Source: a virus. From it: a stretch of DNA of 64,000 nt. Shown here piece after piece: positions 26,014-26,255 of the stretch. The stretch lies in IMG/VR virus record IMGVR_UViG_3300025536_000012, positions 67,496 to 131,495 of that record, one strand, 5' to 3'. Made by a program: the position numbers and the translations under genes. Within the stretch, counting starts at the first letter, position 1, and the number at the start of each line of letters is the position of its first letter. The notes below the pieces were generated by a model. That model saw only the letters and a program-made list of their open reading frames with translations. It made no database searches and was not told where the DNA came from.

Positions 26014-26086
26014 CGTCGACGTAGCCCAATAGCAGAGGTAACAGTTTCAAAAACTGTTCAGTAAGGGTGCGAGTCCCTTCGTCGGC
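26014..26086 (+). tRNA. type I tRNA with anticodon CAA (Leu-type anticodon but short variable loop)
   Basis: anticodon arm ACAGT-TTCAAAA-ACTGT, variable TCAGT, T-arm AAGGG-TGCGAGT-CCCTT. Confidence 0.5.
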
Positions 26087-26090
26087 ACTA

Positions 26091-26164
26091 AGCCAGCGTA
26101 GCCCAACAGCAGAGGCAGCGGTTTTAAACTCCGTGTTGATGCTGGTGCAAATCCAGTCGCTGGT
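26091..26164 (+). tRNA. type I tRNA with TAA/TTA-type anticodon loop
   Basis: anticodon region GCGG-TTTTAAACT-CCGT, T-arm GCTGG-TGCAAAT-CCAGT. Confidence 0.45.
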
Positions 26165-26181
26165 ACGATAGAATTCGTTTA

Positions 26182-26255
26182 TGTCATGGTAGCCCAATGG
26201 CAGGAGGCACTTGCTTGAGGTGCAAGGCAGTGAGGGTTCGAATCCCTCCCGTGAC
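26182..26255 (+). tRNA. type I tRNA with anticodon GAG
   Basis: anticodon arm CTTGC-TTGAGGT-GCAAG, T-arm GAGGG-TTCGAAT-CCCTC. Confidence 0.5.

Follow-up and report, generated by a model that had tools for sequence, protein, structure and literature searches.

Four armless type I tRNA genes, probably leucine isoacceptors, in the tRNA array of a large uncultured phage

The stretch of DNA analysed here (the window) comprises 64,000 nucleotides, positions 67,496 to 131,495 of the IMG/VR virus record IMGVR_UViG_3300025536_000012, and its source is a novel large uncultured phage of about 137 kb. A metagenomic contig of 136,875 bp is recorded with an rIIA product identical to that of the window. The window has a G+C content of 52% and carries several large-phage markers: rIIA and rIIB homologues, an HNH endonuclease, a Thy1-type thymidylate synthase, a dCMP deaminase and a PARP-like gene. 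ARAGORN and the Rfam tRNA model identify about 40 tRNA genes, every one of them on the plus strand. Five of them have leucine anticodons, and four of these lack the long variable arm (armless, or type I). The features of the locus are as follows.

18658 to 29450, plus strand: tRNA array of about 40 genes, which holds the Leu cluster (ARAGORN, Rfam)
25361 to 25436, plus strand: tRNA-Leu(CAG), armless (type I); ARAGORN; Rfam 37.3 bits; host covariance model 54.9 bits; family HMM 44.7 bits
25675 to 25756, plus strand: tRNA-Leu(UAG), canonical type II, 82 nt; ARAGORN; Rfam 50.8 bits
26015 to 26088, plus strand: tRNA-Leu(CAA), armless (type I); ARAGORN; Rfam 49.2 bits; host covariance model 56.6 bits; family HMM 50.8 bits
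26092 to 26166, plus strand: tRNA-Leu(UAA), armless; ARAGORN; Rfam 42.1 bits; host covariance model 47.7 bits; family HMM 39.6 bits
26183 to 26257, plus strand: tRNA-Leu(GAG), armless (type I); ARAGORN; Rfam 54.1 bits; host covariance model 65.6 bits; family HMM 51.6 bits
26276 to 26794, plus strand: HNH endonuclease gene, directly 3' of tRNA-Leu(GAG) (phrog_16726, E = 3.9e-40)

All five Leu genes exceed the Rfam tRNA gathering score of 29, far beyond what chance would give. An earlier note on this DNA had described three adjacent short-loop tRNAs, with anticodons CAA, UAA and GAG, just downstream of a type II tRNA-Leu. Both ARAGORN and Rfam call the three genes on the plus strand, with variable loops of 5, 6 and 5 nt, and agree on the anticodons, and the upstream type II gene is the Leu(UAG) tRNA at 25675 to 25756; all three are thus real, but the count was incomplete, the fourth armless gene (CAG, 25361 to 25436) having been overlooked. 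The CAA, UAA and GAG genes are separated by gaps of only 3 and 16 nt. Each has an acceptor stem of 7 bp, a D stem of 3 bp, anticodon and T stems of 5 bp and an A73 discriminator, and the CCA end is not encoded. The variable loop is UCAGU in Leu(CAA), GUUGAU in Leu(UAA), which also has a G1·U72 pair, and GCAGU in both Leu(GAG) and Leu(CAG). The latter gene likewise has A73, together with a U31·U39 mismatch, and its D arm (GUAGACCA) is unlike the GUAGCCCA-type of the other three. The elbow is canonical in Leu(GAG) (GG and UUCGAAU) and variant in Leu(CAA) (D loop AAUAGCAGA without GG, T loop UGCGAGU) and Leu(UAA) (D loop AACAGCAGA, T loop UGCAAAU), the last two genes having no G18G19 and carrying G55. 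A canonical type II tRNALeu has an arm of more than 10 nt that forms a stem-loop, which none of the four armless genes possesses. The 13-nt variable arm of Leu(UAG), UGACUUCGGUCUU, consists of a 3-bp stem and a UUCG loop; the D loop of this gene is without GG and its T loop reads UGCAACU.

ARAGORN and two covariance models place U33 before and a purine 37 after the anticodon in all four armless genes. The possible 9-nt loop earlier proposed for the middle tRNA turned out to be a canonical 7-nt loop, UUUAAAC (U32-U33-UAA-A37-C38), above a U31·U39 mismatch. A counterpart in viral contig L235, 84% identical, shows a C31·C39 mismatch here instead (GCGGC UUUAAAU CCCGC), and that in contig L232 is similar. 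Among armless members such 31·39 mismatches occur in 7 of 30 UAA and 14 of 48 CAA genes, and in only one of 93 CUN-reading genes; for tRNAs outside this group the count is 19 of 812. This enrichment in the UAA and CAA members marks the mismatch as a trait of UUR readers rather than a sign of another reading register. Counterparts of Leu(CAA), about 87% identical, are found in contigs L229 and L232.

The HNH endonuclease gene that follows Leu(GAG) has a DNA homologue, 68% identical, in contig L235, located about 0.7 kb downstream of the Leu(UAA) tRNA with other tRNA genes in between. A scan for promoters and terminators between positions 25100 and 27000 gave nothing beyond chance, and the small minus-strand open reading frames amid the Leu tRNAs (25756 to 26004 and 25429 to 25662) have no family match. 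No aminoacyl-tRNA synthetase domain, and hence no phage LeuRS, was detected among the large open reading frames scanned in the window. The two largest of all (1241 and 1170 amino acids) have no match in the phage collection, PHROGs or Pfam. Searches for close DNA relatives by blastn against cultured phages and viral loci returned matches at the tRNAs only. At the protein level, rIIA is 30 to 37% identical (tblastn) to homologues in cultured phages of many host groups, the best identities being to Streptomyces phages, the PARP-like protein matches those of Xanthomonas, Stenotrophomonas and Klebsiella phages, and the matches to the tRNA array are mostly from Mycobacterium and Caulobacter phages. 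The contig with the 71% identical rIIA, examined for an orthologous Leu cluster, stops short of the tRNA array, and an exact-match search with the rIIA product of the window itself gave no result.

That bacterial tRNA-Leu is of type II, as the earlier note took for granted, has a published exception, and within the window the long-arm form is represented by Leu(UAG) only. In Streptomyces coelicolor, four tRNALeu are of type II and a fifth, tRNALeu(CAA), is of type I, with the variable loop A44 C45 A46 G47 C48 (Fan et al. 2019, Nucleic Acids Res, PMC6614811). Its single LeuRS (ScoLeuRS) leucylates both tRNALeu types in vitro; it needs U8-A14 and at least 5 nt in the variable loop but is indifferent to A73 and to the G18G19/U55C56 elbow (PMC6614811). 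The Streptomyces type I tRNALeu is not a substrate for the LeuRS of Escherichia coli (PMC6614811), and tolerance of armless tRNALeu is consequently not universal among bacterial LeuRS. Bacterial genomes, one per species, were scanned for the published anticodon, variable loop and T loop of the S. coelicolor tRNALeu(CAA). Among the matches listed, 81 of 120 loci held a tRNA-Leu(CAA) of 74 to 77 nt, nearly all in Streptomyces or Kitasatospora. The typical host gene reads GCCCCGG UA GCC CAGCGGUAGA GGC C AUGGA UUCAAAA CCCAU ACAGC GUCGG UUCGAAU CCGAC UCGGGGC A.

A covariance model of 41 distinct host genes, with the anticodon masked, was used to score the tRNAs of the window. Leu(GAG) (65.6 bits), Leu(CAA) (56.6 bits) and Leu(CAG) (54.9 bits) take ranks 1 to 3, followed by two Cys tRNAs (52.7 and 51.7 bits) and one Lys tRNA (51.2 bits), and Leu(UAA) (47.7 bits) comes seventh. 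The covariance-model check suggested earlier, carried out here with a host-derived model, ranks three of the genes first and separates Leu(UAA) only in part. Only the four armless Leu genes, among the tRNAs of the window, gain with this model over the generic Rfam model. A sequence HMM built on the same host genes, likewise with the anticodon masked, also places GAG and CAG on top, with CAA and UAA intermixed with Ala and Cys tRNAs. As an isotype classifier this HMM was therefore found adequate for GAG and CAG and rejected for the other two; with the host-only models taken together, CAA and UAA are not cleanly set apart from Cys, Lys and Ala tRNAs. Applied to 919 phage tRNAs, the same HMM gave 86 matches of at least 25 bits, every one an armless tRNA with a Leu anticodon.

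The failure of the host-only HMM on CAA and UAA called for a wider family profile in addition to the covariance model. A family HMM was built from 167 distinct type I Leu tRNAs of other viral contigs, again with the anticodon masked. Among the window's 40 tRNAs the four armless genes score 51.6, 50.8, 44.7 and 39.6 bits, the next best reaching 28.4 bits, and the type II Leu(UAG) ranks sixth.

The family is confined to leucine anticodons. The D-arm motif GTAGCCCAAYNGCAGNAGG was found in 101 viral-contig stretches, and the 91 tRNAs that contain it, all of 74 to 78 nt, carry Leu anticodons without exception (UAG 48, CAA 25, GAG 7, CAG 6, UAA 4, AAG 1). Armless tRNALeu, with each of the Leu anticodons represented, are spread over widely differing phages, contigs of 390 to 450 kb among them. 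The same holds for all 14 viral-contig tRNAs with the GTAGCCCAAYAGCAGAGG variant, which is without GG. At E <= 1e-12 over 838 kb, the host covariance model recovers 87 matches, 85 of them with Leu anticodons, and the two exceptions, ordinary Asn and Gly tRNAs, are the lowest-scoring. These anticodon-blind recoveries cover all six Leu anticodons of both the UUR and the CUN boxes, which is as predicted for charging by a LeuRS that is independent of the anticodon; that LeuRS does not read the anticodon is established, and is also stated in PMC11028032. Covariation across 73 distinct members supports the cloverleaf, as 98.8% of the cells are paired and double changes are found at 19 of 20 pairs; none of 500 shuffles scored as high, and no slid structure came close. 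Family constants include U8-A14 (73/73), A15:U48 (68/73), A73 (70/73) and a 5-nt variable loop (72/73). With respect to the LeuRS identity elements, which the earlier note had proposed to check, A73 is present in all four window genes and the family U8-A14 and A15:U48 are kept.

Taken together, the four genes most probably (with a probability of roughly 85%) represent phage leucine isoacceptors, that is, armless type I tRNALeu of the kind found in the Streptomyces chromosome and in many phage arrays. Of the two possibilities raised in the earlier note, Leu isoacceptors of non-standard architecture are thereby favoured, the grounds being the likeness of the body to the Streptomyces type I tRNALeu, the Leu anticodons, A73, U8-A14 and A15:U48, the profile scores and the codon columns described below. 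The CAA, UAA and GAG genes would be co-transcribed, and the precursor trimmed by RNase P and 3' processing enzymes of the host, with the CCA end presumably added by its CCA-adding enzyme. Charging with leucine would then fall to the LeuRS of the host. This enzyme would ignore the anticodon and, at least if it resembles that of Streptomyces, the long variable arm, and would recognise its substrate by the acceptor end and by a core that has U8-A14, the 15:48 pair and no fewer than 5 nt in the variable loop. The five Leu tRNAs (the four armless genes and the type II UAG gene) cover all six Leu codons, all of which are used by the phage. Among 58 long open reading frames, CTC accounts for 35% of the Leu codons, CTT for 21%, CTG for 18%, TTG for 14%, CTA for 10% and TTA for 3%; the two commonest, CUC and CUU, are read by Leu(GAG).

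One alternative explanation is that the genes are no substrates for translation at all, but decoys, sponges or nuclease-resistant stand-ins directed against host defences that target tRNA, or decaying pseudogenes. It is known that phage tRNAs can counteract defences of the tRNA-cleaving type, and the variable loop of tRNATyr is where Septu and retron-Eco7 cut (PMC13096335). The non-canonical elbow of the CAA and UAA genes and the 31·39 mismatches of UAA and CAG could be read in the same direction, as could the fact that the E. coli LeuRS, the sole non-actinobacterial enzyme tested in vitro, failed on the Streptomyces type I tRNALeu. However, compensatory changes preserve every helix throughout the family, at the high pairing level given above, and neither the mismatch at 31·39 nor the variant elbow is random damage, since both are conserved within the family. 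The anticodons, moreover, are confined to the Leu set and jointly cover all Leu codons used, and a variant that evades defence would still function as a Leu tRNA and would thus fall under the main explanation. A role outside translation, or decay, is therefore improbable.

Recoding is still less probable, to the point of being very hard to sustain. On this explanation, also put forward in the earlier note, the armless tRNAs would be charged with another amino acid, so that UUG, UUA, CUC or CUG would be partly reassigned during infection. The loss of the long arm does remove a class II hallmark, and the host-only profile scores CAA and UAA near Ala and Cys tRNAs. Against this, the rIIA protein of the phage was aligned with 119 metagenomic homologues (42 to 71% identity), and the columns at its 63 Leu codons were inspected. 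Leu makes up 53% of the residues at CTG (12 columns), 58% at CTC (16 columns), 67% at CTT (14 columns), 40% at CTA (8 columns), 42% at TTG (9 columns) and 46% at TTA (4 columns), that is, 40 to 67% compared to a background of 9%, and 76 to 90% of the residues are L, I, V, M or F. The test is modest, being based on a single gene, but all six codons fall on Leu-rich columns and recoding is accordingly unsupported. Non-Leu anticodons are likewise absent from the family, save for the two lowest-scoring of the 87 covariance-model matches (Asn and Gly), the body matches that of a tRNA demonstrated to accept leucine, and A73, U8-A14 and A15:U48 are conserved. The window shows no sign of a changed genetic code. 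The remaining suggestion, that the middle tRNA (26092 to 26166) is an ochre suppressor which reads UAA through a shifted UUA in a 9-nt loop, can practically be dismissed. In its favour, UUA does occur within the loop UUUUAAACU, which is closed by a U·U mismatch at 31·39. Against it, UAA occupies positions 34-36, between U33 and A37, both in ARAGORN and in two covariance models, and a loop of 9 nt would likewise have UAA as its central triplet. The L235 and L232 counterparts keep this register with C31·C39, and TAA is in use as a stop, ending 13 of the 58 long open reading frames of the window.

The leucine isoacceptor reading places the four genes within a broader pattern. In a sample of viral contigs picked by a generic D-arm motif, with no selection on Leu, a length below 80 nt was found for 14 of 50 distinct tRNALeu, compared to one of 34 tRNASer and three of 15 tRNATyr. 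In the phage contigs of the armless family the long arm was kept in 42 of 43 Ser and 21 of 25 Tyr tRNAs, and the retention of the arm in these two isotypes indicates that its loss is specific to Leu. Phage tRNA arrays often contain the armless form, which makes this architecture less of a surprise than the earlier note supposed. In the literature searched, no paper was found that describes armless tRNALeu as a general phage feature, with its Leu-specific arm loss, its six anticodons and its probably repeated origins; nor was any found there on long-arm tRNAIle(UAU) in phages. The pattern fits the indifference of LeuRS to the arm, and it raises the question of whether the arm has been shed for a reason such as defence evasion. 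By analogy with the action of Septu and retron-Eco7 on tRNATyr, the arm, and in some members the G18-U55 contact, could have been dropped to evade nucleases that recognise or cut the class II variable arm. That the loss is adaptive and repeatedly evolved, rather than neutrally inherited from Streptomyces-like hosts, is nevertheless considered rather unlikely. If evasion were true, it would require a tolerance of armless tRNALeu by LeuRS in many bacteria, wider than the in vitro result with the E. coli enzyme suggests.

Compared to known systems, the closest match in a bacterial chromosome is the tRNALeu(CAA) of Streptomyces and Kitasatospora, which shares with the window genes a length of about 74 nt, a Leu anticodon, a 5-nt NCAGY variable loop, the absence of an encoded CCA, a 3-bp D stem with C13·A22, the D arm GUAGCCCA..GG.AGAGGC, U8-A14 and A73. 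The window body (D arm GUAGCCCAA..GCAG.AGGC, U8-A14, A15:U48, NCAGU loop, A73) is closely like this gene. Side by side, the D arm reads GUAGCCCAGCGGNAGAGGC in the host and GUAGCCCAAUGGCAGGAGGC in the window, and the window genes share the D arm GUAGCCCAGCGGUAGAGGC and the NCAGY loop of the host gene (as in GUAGCCCAAUGGCAGGAGGC ... GCAGU). There are also differences. Host type I genes have the anticodon CAA only, whereas this phage has CAG, CAA, UAA and GAG; the phage family has A15:U48 as its Levitt pair where the host has G15:C48, a compensated change; and two of the phage genes, unlike the host tRNALeu(CAA), are without G18G19 and carry G55. Leucylation has been demonstrated for the S. coelicolor tRNA and is predicted for the phage genes.

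Among cultured phages, homologues of the GAG gene were found by blastn in 119 records, of which 118 are from actinophages (Mycobacterium 73, Streptomyces 38, Gordonia 4, Rhodococcus 2, Thermobifida 1) and one is from a Stenotrophomonas phage. The homologue is labelled tRNA-Leu in all 60 records among the matches listed, as exemplified by the tRNA-Leu(gag) of Faust (75 nt) and the tRNA-Leu(tag) of Francesca (76 nt). Leu(GAG) is 79 to 88% identical to annotated tRNA-Leu of Streptomyces, Rhodococcus and Gordonia phages, and more generally the tRNA-Leu of about 75 nt in actinobacteriophages (Streptomyces phages Faust and TunaTartare, Rhodococcus phage Francesca, Gordonia phage Sixama and cluster C mycobacteriophages such as Cali) are 77 to 88% identical over most of the tRNA. 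They too are armless and lie in large tRNA arrays with adjoining HNH endonuclease genes, although the rest of the phage is unrelated to them in DNA and only distantly related in protein. In these records the genes are named by anticodon, and the missing arm is left uncommented.

A short-variable-loop tRNALeu(UAG) is mentioned in passing in a Mycobacterium tRNA gene cluster (Behra et al., BMC Evol Biol 2019, PMC6582537). It resembles the present genes in being armless and in belonging to a mobile tRNA array with an HNH endonuclease gene, but it resides in a bacterial genome or plasmid and is the one isoacceptor mentioned. The Leu(GAG) and Leu(CAG) tRNAs of Stenotrophomonas phage DLP_6 are similar in length (74 nt), in their 5-nt variable loop (GUGUU) and in A73, but their D arm, GUGGCGCAAUUGGAAGACGC, resembles that of a proteobacterial type II tRNALeu minus the arm and not the GUAGCCCAA family. 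This difference suggests that the arm has probably been lost more than once. The tRNALeu(UUR) of animal mitochondria is also of type I, with A73 and a LeuRS that has no need for the arm (PMC6614811); its sequence is unrelated, however, and it is served by a dedicated mitochondrial LeuRS, ScoLeuRS being unable to charge it (PMC6614811). Viewed against these systems, the architecture is a known one, characterised in Streptomyces and widely annotated in phages, and the genes of this phage are ordinary examples of it. For annotation, this means that the lack of a long arm in a Leu-anticodon tRNA of a phage or actinobacterial sequence is no reason to mark it as a pseudogene, as a suppressor or as a case of recoding.

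The tRNA-Ile(UAU) in the plus-strand array of the window carries a long variable arm, with a variable region of 22 nt that forms the hairpin CGCGC-UAGAUC-AGCGC.

21280-21369, tRNA-Ile(UAU), 90 nt

Having a long arm on a tRNA whose anticodon reads AUA is the converse of what is seen in the armless tRNA-Leu genes of the window (anticodons CAG, CAA, UAA and GAG), in which a variable loop of 5-6 nt stands in place of the long arm. The combination of a long variable arm and a UAU anticodon, in tRNAs of 90-95 nt, is also seen in at least seven further viral loci, collected for other purposes (L007 at 6917, L016 at 4082, L042 at 8888, L065 at 6564 and 8125, L075 at 6981, L093 at 8392 and L102 at 88), and most of these tRNAs share a CUAGAUU-like loop motif. 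No description of a long-arm UAU tRNA in phages was found in the literature searched.

A second deviation concerns the elbow, where the D and T loops meet. Ten of the 40 tRNAs in the window, spanning nine isotypes, have a T loop beginning UGC, that is, G55 and not U55 (starts at 19501, 20806, 22318, 22396, 23814, 24229, 24709, 25675, 26015 and 26092), and the same ten carry AG in the D loop at the usual G18G19 site. Among about 1000 distinct phage tRNAs, a UUC T loop is accompanied by a D-loop GG in 765 cases and lacks it in four, whereas with a UGC T loop the GG is absent from 88 and present in 15, a count in which some inspected examples have the GG in the stem and not in the loop. The pattern looks like a compensated elbow contact, with A18:G55 in place of G18:U55.

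Two neighbouring tRNAs with differing bodies have anticodon loops of 8 nt, UUAAUGAA in the first and UUAAUGAC in the second, and the 5-bp stem of the latter is perfect. No counterparts were present among about 1100 tRNAs of other viral loci. Four further tRNA-like Rfam matches lack an ARAGORN call, and none of the 40 tRNAs called in the window is a tRNA-Trp.

29297-29370, ARAGORN "tRNA-???", anticodon aatg
29375-29450, ARAGORN "tRNA-???", anticodon aatg
20975-21043, Rfam tRNA model, 32.1 bits
21374-21445, Rfam tRNA model, 24.2 bits
29128-29204, Rfam tRNA model, 39.9 bits
27064-27144, tRNA-Sec model only, 30.2 bits (gathering score 47)

Amber-reading tRNAs (anticodon CUA) also occur in other phage arrays holding armless tRNA-Leu genes, at L232 6967-7039 (ARAGORN "tRNA-Pyl cta") and at L238 4192-4263 ("tRNA-Sup-CTA" in the annotation of Stenotrophomonas phage DLP_6).

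Among the ORFs of the window, two small minus-strand ones, both with a good ribosome-binding site, sit between the plus-strand tRNA genes of the Leu cluster and had no match in a family search. For two very large ORFs, tblastn against the cultured-phage collection and searches of PHROGs and Pfam all came back without a match.

25429-25662, minus strand, ORF of about 77 aa
25756-26004, minus strand, ORF of about 82 aa
45377-49102, ORF of 1241 aa
50906-54418, ORF of 1170 aa
8009-9640, minus strand, PARP-like (poly-ADP-ribose polymerase) gene

The PARP-like gene adjoins rIIB; WGR, PARP_reg and PARP domains are seen in a relative (L239), and jumbo phages of Xanthomonas, Stenotrophomonas and Klebsiella carry genes that are 25-30% identical to that of the window.
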